Positions 1-51,130 of a stretch of 64,000 bases of DNA are shown piece after piece; the first letter of the stretch is position 1; every line of letters starts with the position of its first letter. The position numbers and the translations under genes were made by a program. This DNA comes from Ruditapes philippinarum (taxonomy: Eukaryota). Location: the NCBI RefSeq assembly GCF_026571515.1, contig NW_026866721.1, forward strand, positions 248,001 through 312,000, read 5' to 3'. The notes beneath the pieces were generated by a model. The model saw only the letters and a list, made by a program, of their open reading frames with translations. It did no database searches and had not been told where the DNA came from.

Positions 1-2951
1 GTGAAACAAATATTGACGACAAGGATAGTTGTGGCTATACCATCCTGCATCAGGAGAATGACAACACATTGCTGAGCAAAATACCAAAAGTTAGGAAGAA
101 CAACCATTGCCATGGATACATGAAAACATCAACGGTATACCTGATAATTGCTACAACAATAATCGTGTCTGCCATCGTCTCTTCTAGTAGTGGAATTTTG
201 GTTTATTTCGTGACAAAGGAGCGCATGGAATGCACTTGTAACATTCAAGGAATGAAATTCGGATCACCAGAGGTATCCCATACTATGACAAAAAGTGCAA
301 CAGTTGCATTGACTTCCGGTTTATCCGAAGCTATCTCTCTACCAAGTGAAATGTCAACGGATTCTACAACAATAACACCAAACTATTCGTCAACCGATCG
401 TGACATCTCTCTACCAAGTGAAATGACAACGGTGTCTACATTCGAGACGCCAAACAATTTGTCAACTGAACGCGACTCTCAAGGAGTAACGACAACAGCA
501 GCAACAACTCCTGAATATGAAGTTTCCGCATCAAATGTAGTTTGGAATTCGACAACCTCTACTATAAAAGGTTTACTTTTGTACAGAAATAAATATTGTC
601 GCTTTGAAAATTTTTTATTCTATGGAGCATGATTAAATCGTTGAATATTTAGAGATTGGTCTCATGTTGACTTTCAAAAGTTTTCTTTATTTTATCATGA
701 AACCTTTTTCTGCGCTTATTGAAATCAAAGCAACGTAGTGCATTGATTTTTTGGAATTAAACTAGTGCCGTGTTAACGTGATTGGCATAATCAGATAACT
801 ATAATATATCCTTGATTTTTACTTATCCTTGATTATTAAGTATCCTTGGTAACTTATTTCATTGGTTATACATGATTGATAATTGCATTTTCTTGATTAA
901 ACCTCCTTCATCATTACATATACATATAGATCGTTTTTCCGACTTTGTAAATAGTAGCGTAACCGCCATCTTCTAATCCTTGAATATAATAACTATATCC
1001 TAAGTTTTTAATATGTATATCCTTGATTATTATATATCCTTAAATATTTATACATGGTTGTTGCATATCTGATAATTACCTATAAAAGCCAATTCCATGA
1101 ACTCGACGTTTTACTGTAAGTTGTAGAATATGTCTTTGAAACTTTCAGGAAAACCATGTCCAGATGACTGGTTAAAAACTTCATCGTCTTGTTACTATTT
1201 TAGCACAGATTCTAAAAACTGGACGGATGCTTTGGTCAGTATTTGTGGTCTGACTTCATTATCAGCTTGATATTTTGCCAGTGTAATGTTTATTATGTAA
1301 TGATATTATATCGATATTAGAAATTGATGGCATATGATTATAAACAGGCCTTGTCATCCGCCCTTTTTAATTTAAAAAAGAGATAGGAAAGTCAAAATTA
1401 TTACACATATATTCACAGAACGCTTTAAATTATTGAATGTNNNNNNNNNNNNNNNNNNNNNNNNNNNNNNNNNNNNNNNNNNNNNNNNNNNNNNNNNNNN
1501 NNNNNNNNNNNNNNNNNNNNNNNNNNNNNNNNNNNNNNNNNNNNNNNNNNNNNNNNNNNNNNNNNNNNNNNNNNNNNNNNNNNNNNNNNNNNNNNNNNNN
1601 NNNNNNNNNNNNNNNNNNNNNNNNNNNNNNNNNNNNNNNNNNNNNNNNNNNNNNNNNNNNNNNNNNNNNNNNNNNNNNNNNNNNNNNNNGAACTCTTTAT
1701 CTCTTTTAGACAAAGACACATCGTTGAAAGATAAATGCAAAGCCGTGTTTTTATGATCACGTGTTATTTTTTCTACTCTTTTATTGTACTAGGAAGCCTG
1801 CAAAGCATTTGATAGTAAACTTGTTGAGATATCAGATATTGATGAAGACAATATAATGAGAACCAAGGCAAGGAACGTATATAGTGAGTAACAATTATTG
1901 CTCTCTTGGTCAATGAAAAAAAATAAAATAAATAAACATTGCAGACTAGGTTTGGTTAAGTCTGTCAATAAAGGACAATGCTATGCAACATCTCTCATGC
2001 CCTGTAGCACCGGCTGAAGCAGTATTCAATCTCTAACACTATAAAATATTTGGATCATTGGTCCTGAAGGACCGGGAAAAAAATAACAGCACTTTAACTG
2101 CATTTCACATTGACTGAAAAAGGGAACAATGCATGTACTATCAAAGCTAACTAGAGACGGAATTATACATATACGTTGTGTTTTGTCACAACGACAACTG
2201 ATTCGATTTCTGTTTAGATTAGTTACGATTATTTGTTTACAAAATGGATAAAACATAAACGCCGCATTTATATCGGGCATAGGTCTACTTATGCAATATC
2301 ATGATCATTTTAAAGATGAAGAATGATTGATCAATATTCAGTTTATAAACTCACATTTATAAGCATTGCGTTTTTTGACTATAATTTTAAGAATATAAAA
2401 ATACGAATATTGGTAATACAAATATTACTGTTCATGCGTAATACTCATTACCTGGAATTATATGAGCCGTGTCACGACAAAACCAACATAGTGGGTTTGC
2501 GACCAGCATGGATCCAGACCAGCCTGCGCATCCGCGCAGTCTGATCAGGATCCATGCTGTTCGCTATCAGTTTCTCCACTTGTAATAGAGTTGGTAAGCG
2601 AACAGCATGGATCCTGATCAGACTGCGCGGATGCGCAGGCTGGTCTGGATCCATGCTGGTCGCAAACGCACTATGTTGGTTTTGTCGTGACACGGCTCAT
2701 ATAACGTTTCAGGTAACTATTGGATCGGATTAACAGATCAAAGAGATGAAGGCGTGTGGATTTGGAGCGGGAGTAATACTCGGCTAACATCAGAAATGTA
2801 CACGAACTGGTCACCTGGGCAACCCGATGACGCCAGGGGGCGTGGTGAAGATTGTGCTTCTTTAGAAAAACGTTACTCATTTCGCTGGAATGACGAGGAA
2901 TGTTATATGAAATTAAGATACGTCTGTGAAATAAATTTGCCCAAGAGTTAA
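1..2951 (+). CDS. Type II transmembrane C-type lectin receptor (perlucin-like CTLD, QPD/WND type) with Ser/Thr-rich stalk; 5' end lies outside the window
   Basis: Exons <1-570, 1149-1234, 1793-1883, 2713-2951; GT-AG introns of phase 1, 0, 1. The frame is open from base 3 (ETNIDDKDSCGYTIL...). TM segment VYLIIATTIIVSAIVSSSSGILVYFV. CTLD: CPDDW...CYYFS...WTDALEAC...YWIGLTD...WSPGQPD...EDC...WNDEEC...YVCE. Confidence 0.9.
333..476 (+). repeat. 72-bp in-frame tandem duplication in the mucin-like stalk
   Basis: ISLPSEMSTDSTTITPNYSSTDRD (333-404) and ISLPSEMTTVSTFETPNNLSTERD (405-476). Confidence 0.85.
1441..1689. other. Assembly gap (N run)
   Basis: Run of N. Confidence 1.
2463..2699. mobile_element. 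~240-bp palindromic MITE (TGAGCCGCGTCACGACAAAACCAAC family), intronic
   Basis: Near-perfect fold-back with long TIRs and AT-rich flanks; nine copies in the window. Confidence 0.9.
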
Positions 2952-3032
2952 AGTGACCATAAGTTCATCCCAGGAATAGTGAGAAAGACAAAATGTCAAT
3001 AGCTATTCGGACCTTTGTGGAGCTTCTTTCTT

Positions 3033-3380
3033 TTAAAGCTGCACGCTTCCAGATTAGCCAAATTATCTTTAAAAATCTATCTAAGACTTTTAAAAAAAGT
3101 TTAAAAAATCTCCGACATTTAAGTACAATGTAATAATTTGAATTATGTGCGATTAAAGATCAATTGTGCAGTATTCATCATCATATTTCTACTGCGTAAC
3201 TAACGCAGTAAGGGCTATTTTTGCATATTTTGACCTCTTTTTGGTTATTTGCGTGGACTGTAAATGTCGTTTGCAATTTATTGATCATATACGTTGTTCT
3301 TTTGATAATATTTTTTACTTTTAAATAGACGTTAAAATGTTCAGGAACATCAGTATGAATCTGGAGGCGTGCTGCTTACT
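3033..3380. mobile_element. TTAA-flanked Kolobok-like MITE (AGCTGCACGC family)
   Basis: TTAAAGCTGCACGCTTCCAGATT...AATCTGGAGGCGTGCTGCTT; related copies near 31385 and 57220. Confidence 0.55.
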
Positions 3381-4926
3381 TGTTAATTAACTGCTATTTG
3401 AGCCTCATTGTACTTTTATTCATGTTTGTCACCTCATTGTGTCATGTTTGTACATGGAATACGAGAAATACATGTTTTCTGACTTGACCTGACTTGAATA
3501 ACAATCGATAACGATTTATATTAAGTAATGCCATTGAATCACAAGACTAAGTAAAAATAACATAAAATGACTATATTTTCAAAGCATACAGTAAATATGA
3601 TGTAAAGTAATATATTAATGTGGTGTTAATTCACATTGTTAAGTACAAATGTGAAATGTTGAATTCTTTGGACTGGTACACAGCTTATGGCATCTTTCTG
3701 TATCTTGCATTTTTATCCAAAATCTAAAATTACGAATACTCTCTTGGAGGACTCGCTCATAACGGCAACCGGTGGCGAGTAAAAATAAACTCAATTACAC
3801 ACACACATAGTCTTATATAGGCTTTGCAGTTGTGTAAGAGTCCAATAAAATCAGTATTGTACAAAGCAATGAATATTGATATCTTTATTGTACACCTTCA
3901 ACTTTTCGACAGAATTTAGTTACTGCGAATACAATTTGTAATTGGAAGTTTAAAAAATAAAAAAGGCTATAATGAGTACAATTGTGATTTTATACGAATT
4001 TTTTTGTCTGGCAAATGGAAACGAGGCTGAATTGCTAAAATTTGATTCATTTATGATTTATATTGAGAGATCACGTGGTCAAAACGCTGGAAGTTCATTT
4101 TTACATTTTATAAGGTGTGAATAAAAAAAACATTTTTTCTTGCGTATTTTTAATTCAATTGTAATACAATGATTTATTTCTACATGCATAATGCATTGCG
4201 TGTATACAAAAACACTCACTGTATTGTCAGAATTGCTTTTGTAATCAAAAAGCAAATTATTAACAACTACTACGTTCCAAATAAAATAGATTTATAGCGT
4301 GTACATATATATGTGAATAAAACATATACAAGTTATGATATCTACATGTCTATCATAACATTATAAAAGGCATCAGTATTTCGGAGTAATTCGGAATACA
4401 TCATTACCAAAGTAATTACAAAGAAAACGCAAAACCTATTGACAGCAAAATTAAACTGTTGATATTATGTGAAATATTTTTGCGTTTGAACATATTTACA
4501 TATTTGCATCAATCAATTTACAAAATGTTAATTGTATTTCTTCATTTTGTTCATCCTCAATTAGGAATGCATATATACATGTGCTTATTAATTATACATG
4601 AAATTACGACAGATCTTTAGCAGTGAACCCTTAATTTGGTGGCACCGGAAGTGTCTTGACTTGGCAAGTAATATAAATAGAGCAAGACATGTCCGTGCAG
4701 CGTAACCAGGCTCGTTATCGTTAGTACCTCAATTTTTAATATTTTGATATTAAAATTCATAAAATTTAAAAAAAACAGCTGATGCAAATACGAAGCTTGG
4801 CAAATGCATAAAACAAATTCAGTAGGATAAATAACGTGCATTGTTTTTTGACTTTGTGCGTTCAGCGTCTGAAAATAAATATACATGTTTTTATGACAAA
4901 AGAATATCGTCTGCTCCAAAAATATC

Positions 4927-7900
4927 TTATGCTGGGAACTGTGAAGCACTTGACTTTTCACACACGTACATTGCCGGATATTCACAACTTTGAGCATTCC
5001 AGGAAAATCCCAATGTTCCCGCCATGTAACCACACATTCCTTTCGTGGGTTTGCCGTCTGCCCAGTGAGTATAATGTGTGTCTTCTGTTTTCTCGTTCAT
5101 CCATTTCCACTGTCCTTCAAGCGTTACAAGCCCAATCCAGAAGTCACCTGCGTTTTAGTTTTAAGATTATTTTTTTAAATTTTTTTTTCAAGCAAATTTG
5201 AATGACAATTATATTAATCATGATTCGTGTTAAATTGAAAGAAAATATAAACTTTTGGTGCAAAAATTATCTTAATTTATGTTTTGGCTTTAAAGCTAAA
5301 TATTTGACATAAATGTTAATATACAAAACTGCGACCATTAATCTTTCTTAATAATTCACTGTTAATGAATAAAAAATATGTATAAAAATGTGCAAACCGT
5401 GCACTACTTTTTTAACTCATTACTCATTTGGTTTTAATCTTCAGCTCTTTAAAGATAATGAAGGGAAAAATATATAAAGCATGCATACCACCAGTGCAGC
5501 TATAAATTCCACAATGTTGCCATCTTATTTTCGGATCTGTTGTGTAGCACCAAGGAAACCCCTCACCGTCTGGATCACGACAATAATTAGAGGCATTGAC
5601 TAGAGTCTTGTCTGGGAATGTTTCCGCTTTGTTCCGCGTATGAATATGCGGCGTCTGTGAATCCCATCGTTGACACACGTGACCGTCATATGTCGTCTGC
5701 CGCACTCCATTATATTCACTTGACTTATTTTGATAACAATCTTAAACAAAAACATATACTCATATTACAATATTTTTCTAAATTCTATTTTGTTTTTAAC
5801 GTCTTTTTAAACAAGGGAAAAGACAAGGAGAAAGTTGTGGTTACTTTTCATCACGGATTTATATTACACATTTTGTGTCCATTTAGTTTATAAGTGTGAT
5901 ACGGTTTCGAACACACACAAAACAAACAAACAGGAAATTACAATTTTGAAAAATATAAATGGATAGTTGGATATCAAAGTTTAGTTCCTGAAATACATTA
6001 AAACAATTTTAACTTTGATTAATTTGTTTGCATCTGGATTTTTTAAATTTGAATTTATTTTAAAAACTTTTTTTCCCAATTGTTTCGTCATTTCTCGTTA
6101 ACTCAACATATAATAATGACCCGATTTTTGAACGTGTTTGACATATTGTCTCACAAACTCATCTTCTGCCTCTGATTTAATCCCGGCAAGATAACCCCCT
6201 TCATTTTGGCAACGAGTCTGAAAAGAATTTTAAGCTTTTTTTAACCGAAATTATGATGTTTGATTTGAGGGAAATGTCATTGTTCTTGATTTTAACTATT
6301 GAATGTATAAACTCGAAATTAATAAATGGATTACTTTAGATATGTTTTAACAATCCAATAATATTATGTTTTCGTGATACAAATGTACTAATAATAAATT
6401 CAGTCGAAATGCAGAGTAAAGGAATAAATAAATATGCAACCACATATTAGTATAAATATCATTGTCTATCATAGTTGCAAATAATGTCAAGAAGGTTTTA
6501 AGAAAAAGAGCGATAAAACAAGAGAAAAAGAAACAAAAAACAAATTAATCTGTCCCGGATTTTAAACGGATAAAGGGAAACAAACGTCTATCTCGTTTTT
6601 TTGTAATGTAACGTGTAATGTAATCTTGTAATCCATTTTGTAATGTATCTTGGTATCTTGTAATGTATATTGGTATCTTGTAATTAAACTTGTAATGTAT
6701 CTTCTAATGTATCTTACCAATGCAGTTAACCACGTGACAGATTCGTTACTGAACAAGTAGCACGAGTTGCCGTACTCTATCCAGTTACCATGACAACCTG
6801 TTATATATAGAACCAAATTCTGATACGATTCATAGTTTTATATTAATTAGAATTAAAACGACTTCTTTTTCCCTTTGACTTAAAAGAAACAGCAAATGGT
6901 AACAATGTATTGGAGCCGCGCCATTAACAAAACCAACATAGTGCGTTTGCGACCAGCATGGATCCAGACCAGCCTGCGCATCCGTGCAGTCTGATCAGGA
7001 TCCATGCTGTTCGCTTAATAACCCTATTACAAGTAAAGAGACTGATAGCGAACAGCATGGATCCTGTTCAGCCTGCGCGGATGCGCAGGCTGGTCTGGAT
7101 CCATGCTGGTTGCAAACGCACTATGTTGGTTTTGTCGTGACGCGGCTCATTTTTGTTAAGTTGCTTATCTGTTATTGTTAAATGTGTTTTTACTTCAAAG
7201 GCATACATGCATGTTCAAATTATCTACATGTACATGTCTGTAATACATTTAACTTAACCACATCAGACCAATCTTTTCGAAATCAAAATCACATATGCCT
7301 ACAACCTTGTATATTTAGTGACAATACTTTTAAAGAAGACCTTTTGATACTAATTTAAACTAAGCCTTGGAGGTAAAATGTCTTAACCACTGTTGTCCGT
7401 GTGCATGCTCAATCAAATCGAGCTTAAAACATTGCAGCATATTCAATTTTGCCATGTTGACACTCTGTAAGGTTTCCAGTTTTCCTTTTTTGCAGACAGC
7501 ACACAAGTAACAAAACAAACATCATGATAGTAAAGCAATCTTATCTTCTACTTTATATTTGTATCCCTCTTATACTTTGTTACTGCTCATATGTTTAAAC
7601 ATGTTTTCGTTTCTATAGCTTCGAATGCTTAAGGAAAGGACAGTTAATAATGTTGCTAGAACTTGTTGTTCAACCCTTTTACTCTTTGTTAAAATTGTTC
7701 TTATGTGAAAATAATGTTCTTAAATTGTATTCAAAGAGCAATAAAATATTATTAAACTAAAATAAACTTATATCTCCAAATCAATAATAAAAAATACCTT
7801 GGCTAACAATTGATATAGCATTGATCCCTTCGTCTGAGTTTTCCTTTTCAGCTGCCGCTTCGATTTCTGGACTTTGCACTTGTTTCTCGGAAATGGCAAA

Positions 7901-8170
7901 GTCTGATGGGAGGATCACTTTGCATTCCGTGTTTTTATTGGTCAGAAGAAACACAAGAACTCCGCATCCGATGCAACAAATTGCAGCAACGTTCAGGATA
8001 AAAAATATCATCAAACAAACTGACGATCTCTTCAGATACCGATCACCATGAACTTTTCTGGGTGTGTTTATGCCATTCCGCTTATGTGATTCAAGAATTG
8101 TATACACGTTTGGTGATGTTTGAGTTGTCGTGCTGAGATTGTCCAAATTATCAAAATCAGTTTCATCCAT
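4927..8170 (-). CDS. Type II transmembrane receptor with a C-type lectin domain split by an inserted kringle domain, 340 aa
   Basis: Exons 8170-7798, 6797-6718, 6217-6121, 5740-5489 (kringle), 5147-4927; 1023 nt with phases 1, 0, 1, 1. CTLD N-half: CHGNWIEYGNSCYLFS...WLTALTRCQNEGGYLAGIKSEAEDEFV. Kringle: CYQ...YNG...CQRWDSQTPH...NYCRDPDGEGFPWCYTTDPKIRWQHCGIYSC. CTLD C-half: FWIGL...WKW...YTHWADGKP...CGYM...WNAQSC...YVCEK. Confidence 0.85.
5489..5740 (-). CDS. Kringle-domain exon (252 nt, phase 1-1) of the above gene
   Basis: All six kringle Cys and the NYCR(D)PD and PWCYT signatures; acceptor tttaag, donor gtatgc. Confidence 0.92.
6912..7149. mobile_element. Palindromic MITE copy
   Basis: Same family as 2463-2699. 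Confidence 0.88.
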
Positions 8171-24501: not shown

Positions 24502-24844
24502 TTAAAGGCACATCATGCCTTAAAAAAACGAGTAAGTTTCACATCTTTAAAAAGAGCAAACATAAGTTCATTACGTTTATATAATGGTTTTAGAGCATGT
24601 TAGATGCTTGTTACCTGAAGAAAGTAACGCTAAATGTGAAATGATTTGTCATGTAAGTAGCAAAATGTAAACAAAGTAGTATTTTGACTTTCATTCAAAA
24701 CGGAACAAAAGAAAGAGCTGTTTCAAGTACTTGGCCAATGAATAGCTCTTTGGAAACTACAAAAGTACGCCAAAACTAAAAAATAAACTTTTGAGATAAT
24801 TCATAAAAAATAGAAGCATTTTTAGGGGCATAATGGGCCTTTAA
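24502..24844. mobile_element. Kolobok-like MITE
   Basis: TTAA|AGGCACATCATGCC...GGCATAATGGGCCT|TTAA. Confidence 0.7.
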
Positions 24845-24934
24845 TAAATATTTTCTTATATTGGACAAGGACATATATAATATCCAATGTATCCTAAGGG
24901 TAATTCTGTTTGACATTATTCAAGTAGGAATATT

Positions 24935-27900
24935 TCTATTAGATCCTATTGGAATGTCGTCTTCTTTAGAATGTTTATTCTCGGGTGTTTATAATACAGA
25001 CAAGTTAATCAGTGACCATTTTGGAACATTTGCCTATATTAGAACAAGAAATCAAATTAATGATCCTTTTAAAAGACGAGTCTGGAACTATAAAAGAGCA
25101 AATTTCGAACAACTTAATGAAAAGATTCAAAACACTGACTGGTCATTTCTGACACTCACTGATATTAATACTGCAACAAAACAATTTACAGATAAGTTTT
25201 TAAATTTGGCAAAAACGTGTATTCCTACCACTATGGCAACTATCCGTCCAAAAGATAAACCTTGGTACAATTCTGAAATTAGGAAAACCACTAAAAGACG
25301 AAATAAACAAAAACGAAAAGCTATTTCTACCAGAAAATACGAAGACTGGGTCGGATATAAAACTTTAAGAAATAAGGTTAATAACATGATAAAGCATGCT
25401 AAAGAAGAGTTCTTTAATAATATCGAATTTACTTTGAGTGATTGTAGTTCAACGAATCCGCGTCAATATTGGAAACTGGTTAAATTATTAGTCAAAGAAA
25501 ATTCCCCAAATTGTAAATGTATGCCCCCATTAATAAAAGATGATAATTCCCTAGCCTTTTCTGATAAAGACAAGGCCGATACACTTAATGATTATTTCGT
25601 ATCTATTTCAACTATTGATGACTCTAATACCTCTTTACCACCGCTAGTATATAAGACGAATAAACAGCTCGATAGTTTCAGCATTACCAATCAAGATATT
25701 ATTGACGTTCTTTCAAATCTTATTATTAATAAGGCAAGTGGATCTGATGAAATAAGCCATCGTATGTTAAAGGAGACTCGTTTTACTATTTGTGAACCCC
25801 TAAAAATATTATTCAACATGTCTGTCAATCTTAATATGTACCCAGATAGCTGGAAAACTGCAAATGTTATGCCCTTATTTAAAAAGGGTGATAGCTCAAT
25901 GCCGTCAAATTATCGACCAGTTTCACTTATTAGTTGTATAGGTAAAGTTATGGAACGAATTATGTTTAAGTATGTCTATGACTATTTTCATGAAAATAAT
26001 CTAATCTATAAAAATCAGTCAGGTTTCCTACCTGGACATTCTACAGTGTATCAATTAATTGACATTTACAATCAAATTTGCAAAGCGTTGGATGACAAGA
26101 AATCGACTTGCATCGTTTTTTTTGTGATATTAGTAAAGCCTTTGATCGTGTATGGCATAAGGGTTTGATTTTCAAATTAAAACAATATGGAATTACAGAC
26201 AATATTCTTAAATGGATGTACAGTTACTTAATAAGTCGAAAACAAAAAGTATTCGTTGGATCTACCTTTTCTGAGGAAAGAACCATTAATGCCGGCGTGC
26301 CACAGGGCTCAGTACTTGGACCTCTACTTTTTCTTATTTACGTGAACGATATTGCAGATTCTCTGTCTAGTGTAACACGTTTATTTGCCGACGACAGTTC
26401 ATTATCAGTTAGTTCTAATAATATTAACCATATCGAATCAACATTAAATGACGACCTAAATATATTATCAAAATGGGCAAAACAATGGCTTGTTAAATTT
26501 AATCCGACTAAAACAGAAGTATTATTTCTCTCTCTTAATAGACAAAACGTGAACGTACTTTCACTTTTCTTTGATAATACACGCTTAACGTTTGTTGACA
26601 ACCATAAACACTTGGGTATTACATTTAGTAAAGATGGTTCATGGCATGACCATATTACAAATAAAGCATCTTCCGCCACAAAAGTTTTAGGATCTATGCG
26701 AATGTTAAAGTTTAAGCTTAAACGGAAAACTTTGAATCAAATATATATATCTTATCTTAGACCATTTATTAAATATGCATCTATTGTTTGGGATAGCTGC
26801 ACAGTTTATGAAAAAGATCTTTTAGACAAAATTCAGTATGACGCTGCACGAATTGTAACTGGCTTAACAAGATCTGTATCAATAGAACGTTTACTAAAAG
26901 AAATAGGGTGGGTTTCATTATCAGACAGAAGAAACATGCAGAAATTAATTTTGGTATATAAATATAGCCGTGGAGAATTACCCTGTTATCTGTCTGAACT
27001 TTTTCCAAATACCGTTTTAGAAGCAAATACATACAATTTGAGAAACAATTCTGACTATGCTACTATGGCACGCCGGCTTGAAATCTATGCTAAATCTACA
27101 ATACCTTCATCTATCAAACTTTGGAACAATTTGGACACTCAATCTCGTACTGTAGACTCATTATCAGCTTTTAAACGTAATCTAAAAGAAAAATTTAAAC
27201 CCCCAATAGTTCCCCCATTCTTTATTTCTGGTGAAAGATTTTCACAGGTCCATCATGCAAGAATACGTAATAAATGTAGTAACCTAAACTCCGACTTATT
27301 TTACAACCACTTACGTGATAATCAAAAATGTGACTGTGGATATACCATAGAGGATGCAGAACACTATTTTTTCAAATGTCCGTTATTTCATCAACAGCGC
27401 CATCAATAATTCATTAATACCCGCCCATACCATCCTTTAAGTGTAAAGAAACTGCTGTTTGGAATTGATAACTTGTCGCCTGAAGATAATGACATTATTT
27501 TTGGGCATGTTCAAAAATATTTAAAGAATACGAATCGTTTTAGAACTTAATATATCTTAATGATAATTAAATATAACTCCGTGTTTCTATTTTTAATGCT
27601 GGTCCAGTAACGGAAATGGAGGCGAAACCTGTTTTTTTTTCAGAGGAAAGGTGAACAGAAGTTTGGATGTTTTTAGAATGTGTGTTTTTTTTTCTATTTC
27701 ATGATATTTAAACCTCATATCAATTTTTTTTTTGTTGTTGTTTTTTTTTTCAAAATATTGTCATCTAAATACTTTTATATCAATATAGATATATATAGAA
27801 GCAACTGTAAATATTACTCTGATGATGCGCAAAAAACATATATTTTCTTGTTTCTTCGCCTAACACATTAATTACGTAAACAAGTTTTGTATCTTTATAA

Positions 27901-35432: not shown

Positions 35433-37517
35433 AGACCCTGTTTGTAAAATTATGGATGTAACAGCGAACTGACATTTTATACACGTATATAGTAGGTTTT
35501 CACCCAAAACAATTTCTAAACAGCCAAGTATTTGATCTACACTTTTTTATGTACATTATATATATTAAAAGTCATACAATAAAAGGGTCTTTATATCGAT
35601 TTTTATATCGACATTTTTATCGATTTTGTGATTTTCACATGAAATTTAGTGCCATGAAATACGCTTTCATGTGTTTTAACTCATGTGTCTATTCTCTACA
35701 TTATATTTTTATTGAAAAAAGCGGCCAAGACATTATCAAAAATATATGTTTAATAACAAATGTACCTCGTTATATTTACATAGGCTGTTTGTTTTTATCT
35801 TTTTCATAACTTCTGACTAACTATCTATTGATAATTATTCATTTGAGCACCAGATTTGCCATATAGAACTTAACATTTACATTTACAAGTACATGGACTA
35901 AAATACAAACTTCCCAAGGAAATCAGGTTCTTTAATGTCATCAGTAAATGACATTTCTCTGGCCTCGCAAACCTAATTGTTTTAATCTTCACAACAAAAC
36001 ACATTTTTTCTGGCATATTGTTGACAATTATATATACAGTGCATTTAAAGGGCGTCGATAATATTTTATTTATCACGTGCGAATGTGCAAGCATTATATA
36101 AGTGGGAATGTGTTAAAGTTTCTGTCCCGCGTAGAACTTGATACCTGCGTGCGCACGTGTTGACTACCTGTACGCATAGGATGGAGCCCCTTTAAAAATG
36201 AAATTAATACATAACTACAACAGTAATACCGCTCGGCAGTTTCCGGCATATCTCGGTAAATTCTTTCAAGGATAACAGATGAGGTGTTCCGAATATTATT
36301 TACATATGTTTTACATTCCTTATGTAACCTCGTCGTATCATCGGCGTGCATCTTTGACTATATTGAAAAGACAATTGCATGATATCAATCAATCATCTCA
36401 AAACAAAACAAAAATAACTTCCTTAAATGAATTAGTTTCGTCTAAATACTATTGTTTCATATCAATATATTAAACATTATCTGAGTACAAGTAATGCATC
36501 CAATTTATGCCCACCGAATAATTCGGTACATTCGGACAAGTTAATTTCTGGTATCATCCCAATACGGAATTTTGACCAAACCCGTTCTAGAAAATAGTTC
36601 TTTCGCATTTTGAAGAGTCCCAATTTAAGTCATCCCTAGTTTTACTGGTCATAATTATGTTAGTGTATCTACTGCATCTGTGTAGTTTTGTGTGTGTGTT
36701 ATATGATGACTATAAAAGTTGATTTGTGTGTTTTCTCAGGACCTCATTTCTGAATGTACGGATGAATCAAAGATGTACTATGCGCCAACAGTAAAAAGGA
36801 CAATTTAAAAGAGACGGCTAACATATTATATTTTGGGTCTCATTTGACTTTGATAGTGTTGATGTTTAAAGTTGAAGACATTATATAATTCATCAAGGAT
36901 TGAGGAATCCAGAATTAAGCCTCAAATTTGACTTATTAATGGAACATTTGACTTGGTCGAGTCTTTCTGGTACGAAGGATGCCCGATAAATAACCGGGAT
37001 AGTTTCATACTGATTAATTCATATGCTTACCTCTATGTATTTTATTAAAAATCCGACAAAAAACTAGATTCGACAGAAAAAATAACCTCTTTGCACTGAC
37101 GCATTATCTACTAAACAATGTAAGAGTCCAATTGACCTAGAGCATCTTCTGACACGAAAAATGACAAGATTAAATGAATAAAACGGAAAGTTGGCCGAAA
37201 AAATAAAACGGAACGAAATTAAAATCAGTTCGCCAAATTCAGCTTTTGATACATGTATCACCTTAAACATTATTGTCATTAAGAAACAAGTCACACAAAA
37301 ACATGAAACTAGATGCGACAAAAGATTAGATACCTGGTAAGGAAAAAGAAAACAAGGAGGAAAAATATCAACAAAGCGGCCTCTACAAATAAAAACATCA
37401 TCTTAAAACAAAAGAATTACATAATAAAATATTTGTTTCGTCTATCTTCAGTTAGACTTTACCAAGACTTCCGTACAAACTAACTTTCTGAAGTGATAAA
37501 TCAAAAACGGGAGAAAA

Positions 37518-39898
37518 ATGAAACATATTACTCTTTTAGTGAAGATTTTCTTCATATTTCTCTCAGCTCAGCCTGTTTTCACTGAATCTGAACAACTGTG
37601 TACTCTAAGGCAAGACATGGATTACAGGATATCTGAAGAGCTGATTTTGTTGAGGAACGAAGTGTTCACAGCTACGAGTGAGATTGAAAGGCTACAAAAT
37701 GAAATAAACGAACACAGAGATGAGCAGAAAGGTAAATCCTTTTTTTTAAGACATCCTTTAATGTTTTTTTTTTATTGTTTATTGTTATTTTAATACATAA
37801 AAATAACAGGAATGTGCATTCACGTTTAAGTAACTTAAAATATAGGAAAGACTGAACAAAACTAAAGTTAATGTTTAAAAAGAGATAGATACAAAAATTA
37901 ATAAAATAAAAACATTTCAACGTGAAAGAAAATGGTAAAAGCGTTGATTTATGAAAATAAGTTCTCCGATCTAATCACGTTTTATTGGTATTGCTTATAT
38001 CTTAATACATCTTTTATGGAACTGCATAACTAAATAATGTTTCCTAAAAAATATTTGTAATTTTCGATCAGAATGGAAGCCTATAAATGCAATGTTTTTT
38101 CTTAGTTCTCCAATGAAACTTACGCCATTTGGTCGTCTGCTTATGAGGTCTTAAACCTGAGCTCGTAGTATGTTGGTTTATTTAAATACAAGCTATTAAA
38201 AGATTTTAAACCTCTTACAGTTGCCGGGGGTGACCTGTATACGAGATGGGGCCGCAGGAGTTGTCCTGACAACGGAACAACCCAAGTATATACCGGTAAG
38301 TTATTTCTGTAGGTCAAGTCATGCTATAGGGTCAAATTTACATTTGTCCGGGGGTTATTGGTTTGTTTTTTCCCTATTTTTCGTCCTTACTTATTTGTAT
38401 AAAGCCCTCCGTTATTGCATATATAGAAATGGCATGTACATCTAACCTCTGTACTATTCTCTCTGGGTAATTTCGTCTGCTTGAATTTATCACTAATTGT
38501 ATGGTATTCCTATATAATTGAATAGAAGTGTCGTGCATGGACTTTTTAATGTTATTTTCATATCATTATCGTAGCTAAAATATTTTTTTCTTAAATTTAC
38601 ATCGGCAACACTGGCAAATCGTTTCTTGTTTGTGACGTCATGAACCTTTTATAGTGTCTTTAAACTCTATAAATAATGTGTAAGGTCATCATCTAAAGTC
38701 ATCATTGCAGTGTCCATGGGCTTGAGTAATAACCCCTGTAAGTTCATGACCAGAAACCTTAATTAACGTGAACTTACTGATAAGCTTAATGACACCCCCG
38801 CCCTGTGTGTCTAATGAATAATTCTAATGCCTAATTAATTAATCAATTAATTATAGTTAGCTTATTATAAAATCAATACTATTGACTTATTGTATATCTT
38901 TTATGCCTGTGAACCTGATAATTAAAAATCGACAAACTTTATTTATAACCATATTGCCCATAATGAACTTAATAAATAATCTAAATACACAGACATGTAA
39001 TTTATAATCTTAAAGGCTCATTATGCTTTAGAAATGAATGTATATTTTTCCATCTTAGGAAAGGGCAAGCATGGGTTTTTAATGTTAGAATACTAGTGTA
39101 AAACATGATTTTAGAAATTTGATACTTATCACCTGAAGGATGTGAAAGTATTTGTCATAAATGCAGCAAAAAGTAAATAAAGTAGTATTTTGTCTTCCAT
39201 ACAAAATACTTAAATTACTTTTACTTTAGTAACTGACAAAAGCAAAAGTAGAAAAAGATGTTTCTGGTACTTGGCCAATGAGAAACATTTAGGAACCCCA
39301 AAATAAAAATGCTTTTGAGTAATAATATTAAAAGCATAACTGAGACGTTATGGCCCTTTAAACCCCATGAGACTTTTAAACCATAAGCTATATTTATCTA
39401 TTTCTAGGTTTTATGGCTGGATCGAGCAACTCTCATACCGGTACGGGCTCTAATTACATCTGTTTATCCGACAGACCGACGTGGGATCACTATTCGGGGT
39501 TAAAGAGTCAAGGAACAATCACTGGCGTAGAGTATCAGTTTTGGCACCATCGGGAGACCGGTGCTGCAGAATACTTCGGAGATAACATGTTCAACCACAA
39601 TGCCCCGTGTGCTGTGTGCTACACGAAAAGACGCGTGGCGGTGATGCTCCCGGGAAGGAATAAGTGTTACGACGGCTGGACGACGGAATATGAAGGCTAT
39701 CTCGTGTCCGGGCCTTACAGCGACAGCGGTGCTACTGAATATGTATGCCTTGATAGGCGTCCGGAAAAGGTGATAAATGGGGACAAGAATGATGACGACA
39801 ACCGGCTTTATTTAGTAGAAGGAACATGCGGTGAAAGTTTATCTTGCCCGCCGTATGAGGCAGGTCGGGAGCTGACATGCGTAGTATGTTCTCTGTAA
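37518..39898 (+). CDS. Secreted protein: signal peptide, short coiled coil and short-chain collagen C4-like (NC1-related) domain, 259 aa
   Basis: Exons 37518-37731, 38221-38295, 39408-39898 (780 nt, phases 1, 1). Motifs YTRWGRRSCP, GFMAGS...GSNYICL, GVEYQ, APCAVC, PGRNKCYDGWTTEYEGYL, YVCLD, CPPY...ELTCVVCS. Confidence 0.88.
39010..39362. mobile_element. Kolobok-like MITE in intron
   Basis: TTAA|AGGCTCATTATGC...TATGGCCCT|TTAA. Confidence 0.65.
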
Positions 39899-48879: not shown

Positions 48880-49755
48880 AATTGACACATGTTTGATTCA
48901 TTTAACAGATTGCATTATTTGAAATGGACAAAGGCAGTATTGCATGATACTTTTAGATCTACAAAGGGCATTTGATACAGTTGAACACACTATCCTGCAC
49001 ATGAAGAAGTTGTTTTTCTTCTTCTTCATGAAACTTCAAGCATCTGCCATATATAATGACATTCTTACATGGTTTAAGTCTTATCTCTGATAGTAGCTGG
49101 TTGATGTGGCTGGTACTTATTCTACTACTGCTCTGAGTACCTATGCTGTCCCCCTGATGTTCATTTTAGGTCCTCTTTTTATGTCTAATATATGTCAATT
49201 ACATGTCTTCAACCCTAAGCAATAAGCTTTTATTATAATGCACAGGCACGAGTATCAGACCTTGGATGAAAAAATATGGCCAGATTGATAAAAGAACCTG
49301 TGTTCATCTTAAAAGTGTCAACAACCAAAATAAAATGTAAATAATGACCCCCTTTAAAAATATACTTCAAGTTGAAAGTATATTTTTAAAGGGGATCATT
49401 ATTTACATTTTTTGTTTTGGTTTTTATAAACACAGTTTTTTTTTATCAATCTGGTCATCTGGTCATATTTTTTCTTCCCAGGTCCGATACTCGTGCCAGT
49501 GATTATATGCTGATGACTCAGGAATCCTTGTGTCTCATAAATTAAATCTGAAGAAATTCTTTCTTATAACATGAGTCTTATAAGATTGCTTAATTGACTA
49601 TAAATTGCCTTTGCATCTTGGCAAGACAGAGTCTATTCTTTTTTGGTTTAAGTTTCAACTTAACCTGGCCCTAGCCTCCAGGTCACATGTAATGGTACTG
49701 CTATAAAGTACACATCTTTTGTTAAGTATTTAGGTGCAAATCTGGATCAAATTCT
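48880..49755 (+). mobile_element. Highly decayed LINE reverse transcriptase remnant
   Basis: Frame-shifted motifs DTCLIHLTD, LLDLQRAFDTVEH, ILTWFKSYL, YADDSGILVS, LHLGKTESILF, VKYLGANLDQ. Confidence 0.7.
49237..49505. mobile_element. Palindromic MITE inserted just upstream of the YADD motif of the decayed LINE
   Basis: CAC(A/T)GGCACGAGTATC...GATACTCGTGCCAGTG; fold-back over its whole length. Confidence 0.75.
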
Positions 49756-49794
49756 TTTGGCGTCGCCCTTTGATGCTTTGCATCAATGCTTTTC

Positions 49795-51130
49795 TTGTTA
49801 TATTTTGGAAAACCAAGAGAGGTTTGCGTAATATGCCTAACTTTCACTATGAGGGGACTGTCCAGGAAATTGTTGAGCATTTCTCATATTTAGGTGTCCA
49901 ATTTTCATTTAATGGTAAATTCAGCAGAACTAAAACATTCCTTATTGATCAAGCCCGTAAAGCCATGTTTTCTGTAATTAGGAAATCTAGGATACTTAAT
50001 TTACCAATAGATATGCAATTACACTTGTTTGATACAATGATAGCACCCATTTTGTTGTATGGGTGTGAAGTTTGGGGTGTTGAAGATGTGAGTGTTGTGG
50101 ATAAATTTCAATTAAAATACCTAAAGATAATTCTACAGTTGAAACAGAGTACTCCAAATGCTATGATTTATGGGGAGTTGGGTATTACCCCACTTTCAAC
50201 ACAAATTAAAAGTAGAGTTCTCAATTACTGGGGTAAAATAGTTAATTCTGAACATGATAAGATAGTCAGCATTCTATATAGAACAACTCATAATTTATAT
50301 ACTCTGAATAATATTAAATCAGATTGGGTCTGTTTTGTTCGAAATAATTTAAATGATCTTGGATTGTCGCATTTTTGGATAAATCAAAATGTGGAATCTC
50401 CTGCTTCATTCAAGAATACTGTCAACTTAAGATTGCGTGATCATTTTATGCAAAATTGGAGAAGTACAATTAATAATTCCAGTAAATGTCTAAATTACAG
50501 GATTTATAAACAGGATTTTTGTTTTGAGCCATACCTCAGCAAGTTACCTATGAATTTAGCTTTAATTCTCTTTAAATTTAGAAGTATGAATCACAAACTT
50601 CCTATTGAAAAAGGAAGGTTTGATGATATTCCAAGAGAACTTAGAACTTGTAACCTATGTACCAGTAACTCTTTAGGCGACGAATTCCATTATCTTTTTG
50701 AATGTTCACATTTAGTCAATACAAGAAAGCTGTATCTTGATAAATATTTCTATGAACGTCCAAGTGCTTTAAAATTTGAAAAATTAATGAACCATAGTAA
50801 TAAAGATATCCTTTTGAAACTTGCCATATTTTGCAAAAATATTATGTTATTATTTAAATAATGTTAGCTTATTAGATTATGTATTTTCTCTTTGTTTTTT
50901 TTTTCTCGCAATGATTTTTGATTTTTCTCTCTCATCCTCCATTATCAGTCAATTATTACAGTAATTTTATTACATCATGGAGTTGTATGACCATTTATAA
51001 TTTGTCATTTTGTAGTATTTTGTTTTTACATATTATTTGCCATTTTGTATTATTTTGTATGTATGTACTGTTTTATGTTGTCACATGCCCATATGGGCCC
51101 TGACGTATTCAAATAAACCTTGAAACCTTG
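49795..51130 (+). mobile_element. 5'-truncated LINE (RTE-X-like) ORF2 C-terminal part with short-repeat tail
   Basis: Open frame to 50861: FSYLGV, PILLYGCEVWG, YGELG, LPIEKGR, CNLC...GDEFHYLFEC; ends AATAAACCTTGAAACCTTG. Confidence 0.85.

Follow-up and report, generated by a model that had tools for sequence, protein, structure and literature searches.

A complete kringle nested in the C-type lectin domain of a putative type II receptor family of clams

The window considered here is a whole stretch of 64,000 nucleotides from Ruditapes philippinarum (G000:C15208:248001-312000, in an assembly of 1.41 Gb), and positions are counted from its first letter unless a contig is named. Near its start two genes converge, gene 1 on the + strand with its stop codon at 2949-2951 and gene 2 on the - strand with its stop at 4929-4927. 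Gene 2's CTLD (C-type lectin-like domain) is divided by a complete kringle, whose exon sits between the exon that ends in helix alpha2 and the exon that carries the WIGL motif; gene 1 has a plain phase-1 intron at this place. The two genes are read, with a probability of about 0.6, as paralogous clam receptors, the kringle-split CTLD refolding into a single domain for variable non-sugar or foreign ligands and the YTIL motif of the cytoplasmic tail serving as a YxxPhi uptake signal.

Gene 2 corresponds to NCBI XP_060576104.1 (340 aa, 'apolipoprotein(a)-like [Ruditapes philippinarum]') and comprises five exons on the - strand. Exon 1 (8170-7798, in the NCBI model and covered by contigs) encodes the tail, the transmembrane segment and the stalk; exon 2 (6797-6718) the beginning of the CTLD N-half, with beta1 and the start of alpha1; exon 3 (6217-6121) alpha1 to alpha2, ending in a weak phase-1 donor, GTCATT; exon 4 (5740-5489, 252 nt, phase 1-1) the kringle, in the alpha2-beta2 loop; and exon 5 (5147-4927) the C-half from WIGL to beta5, with the stop and lacking EPN/QPD or WND. 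The Pfam Kringle profile (PF00051) matches residues 185-265 over its full length (1-79 of 79, E 9.9e-22, 77.5 bits against a cut-off of 34.3), with all six Cys, and Lectin_C matches in two stretches, the better at 268-332. The earlier note had called gene 2 a kringle sensor, which is right about the kringle but incomplete, as the kringle lies inside a lectin domain. Splicing was followed in runs X1 and X2, which are contigs from two studies whose RNA status is a guess (14 runs in all were taken as RNA in this way). Both contain the joint 5145/5487, whose shorter side measures 255 and 89 nt, and the joint 5740/6121, whose shorter side measures 29 nt; the introns have CT..AC ends as read on the + strand, and the junctions of the NCBI model are identical to these. 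The transcript-like contigs show the kringle exon joined by splicing to the CTLD half on either side. Two raw-read runs, X21 and X23 (4 and 6 in 100 of the reads), left the exons of gene 2 almost uncovered, and their depth is dominated by a miniature inverted-repeat transposable element (MITE).

A structural model suggests how the halves come together. AlphaFold2, run on an alignment of 54 rows (family members, 20 kringle exons, 20 generic C-halves and six family last exons), gave a mean predicted local distance difference test score (pLDDT) of 71 for gene 2, and the ten-residue blocks of residues 131-330 lie at 72-97 except for one at 56. Residues 125-335 superpose as one domain on codakine (Z 19.6, root-mean-square deviation (rmsd) 1.7, 124 of 129 residues), NKp80 (Z 19.4, rmsd 1.4, 120 aligned) and ASGPR1 (Z 19.0, rmsd 1.7, 119 aligned), and the split CTLD scores Z 18.1 with Dectin-1 and Z 17.4 with CLEC-2. 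The top Foldseek match of the model is MGL; an apolipoprotein(a) kringle is also matched (template-modelling (TM) score by target 0.74, rmsd 2.3). An Atlas model of gene 2 yields single-CTLD matches across residues 122-337 (TM scores 0.56/0.62, 132 aligned), and the CTLD cysteines 126, 137, 154, 306, 322 and 330 are present. The two halves are thus predicted to close into one domain, from which the kringle loops out in the alpha2-beta2 interval. Alignments to which intact CTLDs or N-halves had been added were dropped, having misaligned onto the kringle. A homodimer prediction for residues 122-336, which left the alignment unused, scored 0.02 and gave no answer.

The arrangement is not peculiar to this locus. 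The earlier note had pointed to a search for more paralogues, and ten of 15 regions fetched from the best kringle and exon-1 matches genome-wide, among which there may be some alleles or haplotigs, show an alpha2 exon followed by a kringle exon and the last (WIGL) exon (C4740 twice, C65, C1741, C6270, C1078, C10961, C15703, C4865 and C815). One of these kringles is frameshifted, one last exon was only partly found, and C10961, which corresponds to protein P0002, has two kringles. Mercenaria mercenaria has two proteins with the same layout, P0003 and P0004, and nine of the 13 proteins returned by one search are family members, all from Ruditapes or Mercenaria; Mactra P0005 and Haliotis P0011-P0013 contain kringles and gave no Lectin_C match. 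P0003 carries an additional intact EPN-type CTLD ahead of the split one, of which no trace was found in intron 1 of gene 2. After removal of the kringles, a tree places the eight split CTLDs in a single group (support 92/95), and the gene 1 CTLD falls outside it, unresolved in position and not sister to that of gene 2. This fits a single entry of the kringle before Ruditapes and Mercenaria separated, which probably came about by shuffling of its exon into the phase-1 intron that separates the alpha2 exon from the WIGL exon. A tblastn search of the gene 1 introns, one of which is partly N, saw no kringle remnant, and Atlas feature searches returned only leads below 0.9 and no lectin-kringle cluster.

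Closely related kringle exons also occur as tandem pairs, at G000:C10961:219971-221421, C10790:38264-39290 and C3010:36113-37165; the first pair is nested in a CTLD, and lectin exons were not found around the other two. Frameshifts in a kringle exon or in exon 1 mark G000:C815:36671-36924, C6030:108171-108417 and C1741:1973-2206, as pseudogenes or assembly indels. The genome further contains clusters of intronless CTLD coding sequence (L095-L112, for example on G000:C13984, C2727, C13971 and C15505), as against the three-exon CTLDs described here.

The kinship of the two genes, proposed in the earlier note, is borne out by their N-terminal parts: the first 95 residues align with a score of 88, where shuffles give 26.9 +/- 4.8 and none of 2000 scores as high, and BLASTP gives 32% identity over 81 aa (E 2e-8). 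Gene 1 comprises exon 1 (+), which runs from an ATG 28 nt upstream of the window to 570, encodes tail, transmembrane segment and stalk, and ends in a phase-1 donor, GTTTAC; exon 2 (1149-1234), with CTLD beta1 to the start of alpha1; exon 3 (1793-1883), with alpha1-alpha2; and exon 4 (2713-2951), with the CTLD C-half and the stop (Lectin_C E 3.7e-15). The exons have GT-AG ends and the frame is open throughout. The donor of exon 1, G/GTTTAC, resembles the G/GTTTGA exon-1 donors of three NCBI-annotated paralogues, and this long form of gene 1 is preferred because its exon 1 is homologous to that of gene 2 and has a family-type donor; the splice from exon 1 to exon 2 is accordingly a putative one, drawn from donor and homology. 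Exon 4 contains QPD (2820-2828) and WND (2886-2894), as expected of the galactose-type domain that the earlier note assigned to gene 1, and these motifs suggest that it may bind such sugars. Both products are predicted type II membrane receptors, with an N-terminal tail, one transmembrane segment and a C-terminal CTLD. The transmembrane segment of gene 2 (about 8020-7940) has a hydropathy of 2.69 at residues 51-69 and forms a helix at 49-77 in the AlphaFold2 model; that of gene 1 (about 135-212, in exon 1) is weaker, at 1.95. Contigs of runs X1, X2, X3 and X5 give almost no cover of gene 1, namely 227 nt of exon 4 in X2, at depth 2.7, and two pieces in X5, and none of the four lists an exon joint; as the runs were chosen with gene 2, this near-zero cover is no evidence on expression or co-expression. 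The 5' part of gene 1 is copied twice more, at G000:C10661:31062-31449 and 37332-39879 (L004, L005), where about 135 codons into one copy a tandem repeat takes over and the other has ACG for ATG and a garbled last exon; a haplotig, a duplicate or an assembly error are candidate explanations.

The tail-to-tail order of the genes and the Cys that they share in the stalk (C87 of gene 1, 231-233, within a Ser/Thr-rich stalk; Cys83 of gene 2, 7924-7922, in exon 1; invariant in 4/4 aligned exon-1 sequences) were both seen correctly in the earlier note, which went on to propose a paired signalling-receptor locus. The adjoining position of the genes, their homologous transmembrane segments and the aligned Cys would indeed suit a dedicated disulfide-linked heterodimer that combines a galactose sensor with a kringle sensor. 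Yet the stalk Cys is found family-wide, ten regions arranged like gene 2 are on other contigs, where the fetched stretches showed no partner resembling gene 1, close copies of gene 1 were found only on C10661, and convergent neighbours share no promoter; together with the separate placement of the gene 1 CTLD this makes a dedicated pair very improbable. The pairing has the look of an ordinary local event, and duplication in place, with inversion, best accounts for the neighbourhood of genes 1 and 2.

The two kinds of CTLD differ in their calcium/sugar motifs. None of ten split-CTLD proteins keeps EPN/QPD or WND, and gene 1 keeps both QPD and WND. Substitution patterns were analysed in six close paralogues (C4740, C65, C6270, C1078, C15703 and C4865), a set that excludes gene 2 and C10961, which are more divergent, C1741, which is near-identical to C4740, and C815, which was fetched later. 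The pooled ratio of nonsynonymous to synonymous substitution (dN/dS) is 2.06 in the last exon, an excess of amino-acid changes, as compared with 0.33 in exon 2 (four sequences), 0.64 in exon 3 and 0.60 in the kringle. For the last exon (exon 5) model M2a is preferred to M1a (likelihood-ratio statistic 23.0, p 1e-5), with omega 11.3 on 37% of sites; for the kringle it is not (1.7, p 0.42). The selected sites cluster in the long loop and in beta3-beta4, which form the usual ligand face of CTLDs.

The kringle, for its part, largely keeps lysine-pocket-like positions. By alignment to plasminogen kringles, the pocket-like residues of gene 2 are D241, E243, W247, Y249, R256 and W257, the aromatic positions being numbered as Trp62/Phe64. 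Across 12 kringles of the family the equivalents of Asp55 and Arg71 are present in 12/12 and that of Trp72 in 11/12, and the Asp57 position is Glu in 8/12, Leu in three and Thr in one. Lysine-binding kringles are described as having an anionic centre of Asp55 and Asp57, Arg71 and an aromatic trough (PMC9736318, in the part available). The kringle might instead be a passenger or spacer tolerated in a permissive loop, in receptors for adhesion, mucus or shell and not for immunity: its omega of 0.64 does not differ significantly from 1 (p 0.15), the pocket acid is lost in 4/12 kringles, and bivalve lectins have non-immune roles according to the accessible portion of a review (PMC12842671). An idle insert would hardly be expected to stay in frame in both species, to be doubled in one paralogue and to keep its six Cys and most pocket residues, and a conflict with foreign ligands would accord with how strongly the lectin face is selected for diversity; a mere passenger is rather improbable.

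The cytoplasmic tails carry the motif from which this work started. YTIL is present in both, as DDKDSCGYTIL at 15-47 on the + strand (YTIL at 36-47, Tyr at 36-38) and SPNVYTIL at 8116-8093 on the - strand (YTIL at 8104-8093, Tyr at 8104-8102), and the rest of the tails is as divergent as the earlier note had it: alone, they are weakly alike, 56 of 2000 shuffles scoring as high. When the tails are shuffled, 3.4% of the pairs share a 4-mer; given the N-terminal homology and the weak likeness of the tails, descent from a common ancestor, and not convergence, is the best reading of the YTIL match. The start of gene 1, which the earlier note had expected beyond the window, was found there as an in-frame ATG at G000:C15208:247973, ahead of YTIL. 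As the frame is open to it, YTIL lies inside the reading frame, and the objection that translation might begin downstream of the motif does not apply at the DNA level.

Among 13 tailed family members, YxxPhi occurs in ten (YTIL three times, YSLL twice, and YNLL, YKLI, YTSL, YNIF and YTEF once each), the holders of YTIL being gene 1, gene 2 and the orthologue P0019. The Tyr at position 8 of short tails was equated with Tyr22/23 only via a gapped alignment. Of the nine proteins that the exon-1 profile search yielded, P0024, with its 11 short stretches, was left out as probably an artefact of repeats, and a genome match on C6834 with five stops was dropped. Homologue searches with exon 1 of gene 2 and with exon 4 of gene 1 returned only the respective proteins themselves (1/97 and 1/3 candidates); no gene 1 orthologue was found in this way. 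As to the conservation that the earlier note proposed to test, most tailed members keep YxxPhi and three keep YTIL, and the Mercenaria orthologue of gene 2 has YTIS.

Published hemITAMs (hemi-immunoreceptor tyrosine-based activation motifs) have acidic residues in positions -2, -3 and -4, and phosphorylation requires these, according to the part available of PMC3576117. The description of the clam motif as hemITAM-like is not supported by this comparison: gene 1 has one of the three, at -4, gene 2 has none, and all ten YxxPhi tails lack the triacid. It might still be that the tails are functional hemITAMs, with Cys-linked dimers offering two phosphorylated YTIL to clam Syk as in CLEC-2, Dectin-1 and CgCLec-TM1. 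YTIL recurs in gene 1, gene 2 and P0019 and YxxL/I in 8/13 tails, the Tyr of gene 1 follows a Gly at -1, and its positions -4 to -7 include three Asp, coupling of lectins to Syk has been reported for oyster (PMC13027682, in part), and the triacid is said to serve phosphorylation and not binding by the Syk SH2 domains, NKp65 and NKR-P1A departing from it (PMC3576117, same part). Set against the missing triacid, the YTIS of Mercenaria and the two relatives with Phe at +3, Syk coupling appears unlikely. The shared YTIL is more likely an uptake signal of the YxxPhi type than a Dectin-type switch. A +3 position that tolerates L, I and F alike is more in keeping with a YxxPhi sorting signal than with a Syk site.

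Other tails raise the thought of a paired system like that of natural killer (NK) cells, in which members with immunoreceptor tyrosine-based inhibitory motif (ITIM)-like tails, with YTIL and without tails would give opposite signals from one diversifying ectodomain. The ITIM consensus is [ILVS]-x-Y-x-x-[LVI]. It is fitted by P0002, P0004, P0016 and P0020, which have Leu at -2 and L/I at +3, and not by genes 1 and 2, with Cys and Asn at -2; four sequences start with MQKSS and have almost no tail (gene models P0006, P0017 and P0022 and a genomic frame on C65), and the positive selection on the ligand face would be in keeping. However, the tail-less starts are gene models for which an upstream exon is possible, and the transmembrane segments of these members have no charged adaptor residue, so that opposing signals of this kind are improbable. 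Only somewhat less doubtful is the wider picture of venerid NK-like variable immune receptors, with a kringle dropped into the CTLD, a lectin face diversified by pathogens, a constant lysine-gripping kringle and ITIM-like, YTIL and tail-less members of opposing sign.

The uptake-receptor reading favoured here would work as follows. At the cell surface, gene 1 would bind galactose-type glycans in a Ca2+-dependent manner, and the gene 2 family would bind ligand through its variable, calcium-independent lectin face, which would set specificity. The lysine-pocket-like site of the kringle would likely provide a second, constant contact by gripping a protein that bears Lys or Arg, the stalk Cys would likely link dimers, and the tail Tyr would likely drive internalisation of the bound ligand, with phosphotyrosine signalling possible in addition and a role in immunity presumed.

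Several observations weigh against this reading. The alignment behind the gene 2 model was hand-arranged, with generic CTLD C-halves placed on exon 5, and a first AlphaFold2 run with 11 family rows reached a pLDDT of only 44. An unspliced contig runs over intron 5741-6120 in X1 and X2, at depth 20/14 as against 58/47 for the joint; with this contig, the 29-nt short side and joints known only among those listed, isoforms that skip the kringle or retain the intron are possible. The NCBI model of gene 1 (144 aa, 'perlucin-like') begins in intron 1 and omits the transmembrane exon. Five of the 15 fetched stretches (C10790, C3010, C6030, C7709 and C10032) have kringle exons only, and the support for the split-CTLD group falls below the starred bar, 31/500 shuffles being as low. 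The selection result comes from our own codon-model script, run with no recombination screen on six sequences that may be alleles, haplotigs or gene-converted copies. With Glu, Leu or Thr at the Asp57 position, lysine binding may be weak or lost. Finally, three of the 13 tails have no YxxPhi: P0003 of Mercenaria (XP_053377567.1), to which gene 2 is most closely related, reads YTIS, P0023 lacks a Tyr, and P0010 has a long unrelated tail.

Apart from the two genes, a palindromic MITE-like repeat of about 235 bp occurs at 2463-2700 and 6927-7150, in one intron of each gene, and is very abundant in reads. A further copy lies about 1.0-1.3 kb upstream of the window (L001), and an X5 contig that joins 3408 to 3699 of L007 suggests an allele lacking the element. 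Elsewhere in the window, long open reading frames at 24834-27406 (+) and 49734-50858 (+) are presumably remnants of non-LTR (long terminal repeat) retrotransposon endonuclease and reverse transcriptase, a 191-codon open stretch at 46001-45429 (-) with a metallo-beta-lactamase-type SHNHYDH motif is one we take to be NAPE-PLD-exon-like, and a 172-codon open stretch at 39380-39895 (+) is presumably short-chain-collagen-C4/apextrin-like.

Gene 2 provides a transcript-supported case of one extracellular module nested within a C-type lectin domain, and it indicates that exon shuffling can use as a socket the phase-1 intron that lies between the alpha2 exon and the WIGL exon. Domain counts would read its family as two broken half-lectins, and the NCBI names within it ('apolipoprotein(a)-like', 'plasminogen-like') miss the nested architecture. 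As a lineage-restricted family with a positively selected binding face, it is a candidate for specific recognition in farmed clams. A literature search, with subscription journals outside its coverage, found no description of a kringle nested in a CTLD, and kringles go unmentioned in the available parts of a review of bivalve C-type lectins (PMC12842671) and of a genome-wide survey with one supplement (PMC10140915). The nearest report concerns the 'RpMR' genes of R. philippinarum, for which the portion at hand gives kringle (KR) among the domains that co-occur with CLECT and leaves nesting undescribed (PMC12321717); the set in its Fig. S3 may include a member of the gene 2 family.

Type II lectin receptors with Tyr motifs are already known, bivalves included, and since a hemITAM has already been reported for oyster, that idea alone adds little. 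The vertebrate hemITAM receptors (CLEC-2, Dectin-1, CLEC9A and NKp80) are likewise type II, with one CTLD and one YxxL in a short tail, whereas the clam tails lack the triacid, vary at +3 across orthologues and, in gene 2, accompany a CTLD that holds a kringle. The endocytic type II lectins (ASGPR, MGL/CLEC10A and the DC-SIGN group) combine the type II topology with a stalk and a YxxPhi tail. Gene 1 resembles them in its galactose-type QPD and WND, and gene 2 in that its model has MGL as top Foldseek match, but the stalk of gene 1 is Ser/Thr-rich and not a coiled coil, and the calcium site of gene 2 is lost. The oyster lectins CgCLec-TM1 and CgCLec-HTM are, as far as the available text describes them, bivalve C-type lectins that span the membrane, carry a Tyr motif on the cytoplasmic side, bind lipopolysaccharide and couple to Syk, the transmembrane segment of CgCLec-HTM being C-terminal (PMC13027682; PMC12842671); a kringle figures in neither of these descriptions. 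With the kringles of plasminogen and apolipoprotein(a), the clam kringle shares six Cys, a match to plasminogen kringle 4 (E 3.7e-20), largely conserved lysine-pocket positions and, at the Asp57 position, the Glu of plasminogen kringle 2, but it occurs singly or doubled inside the CTLD of a membrane receptor that has no protease domain.

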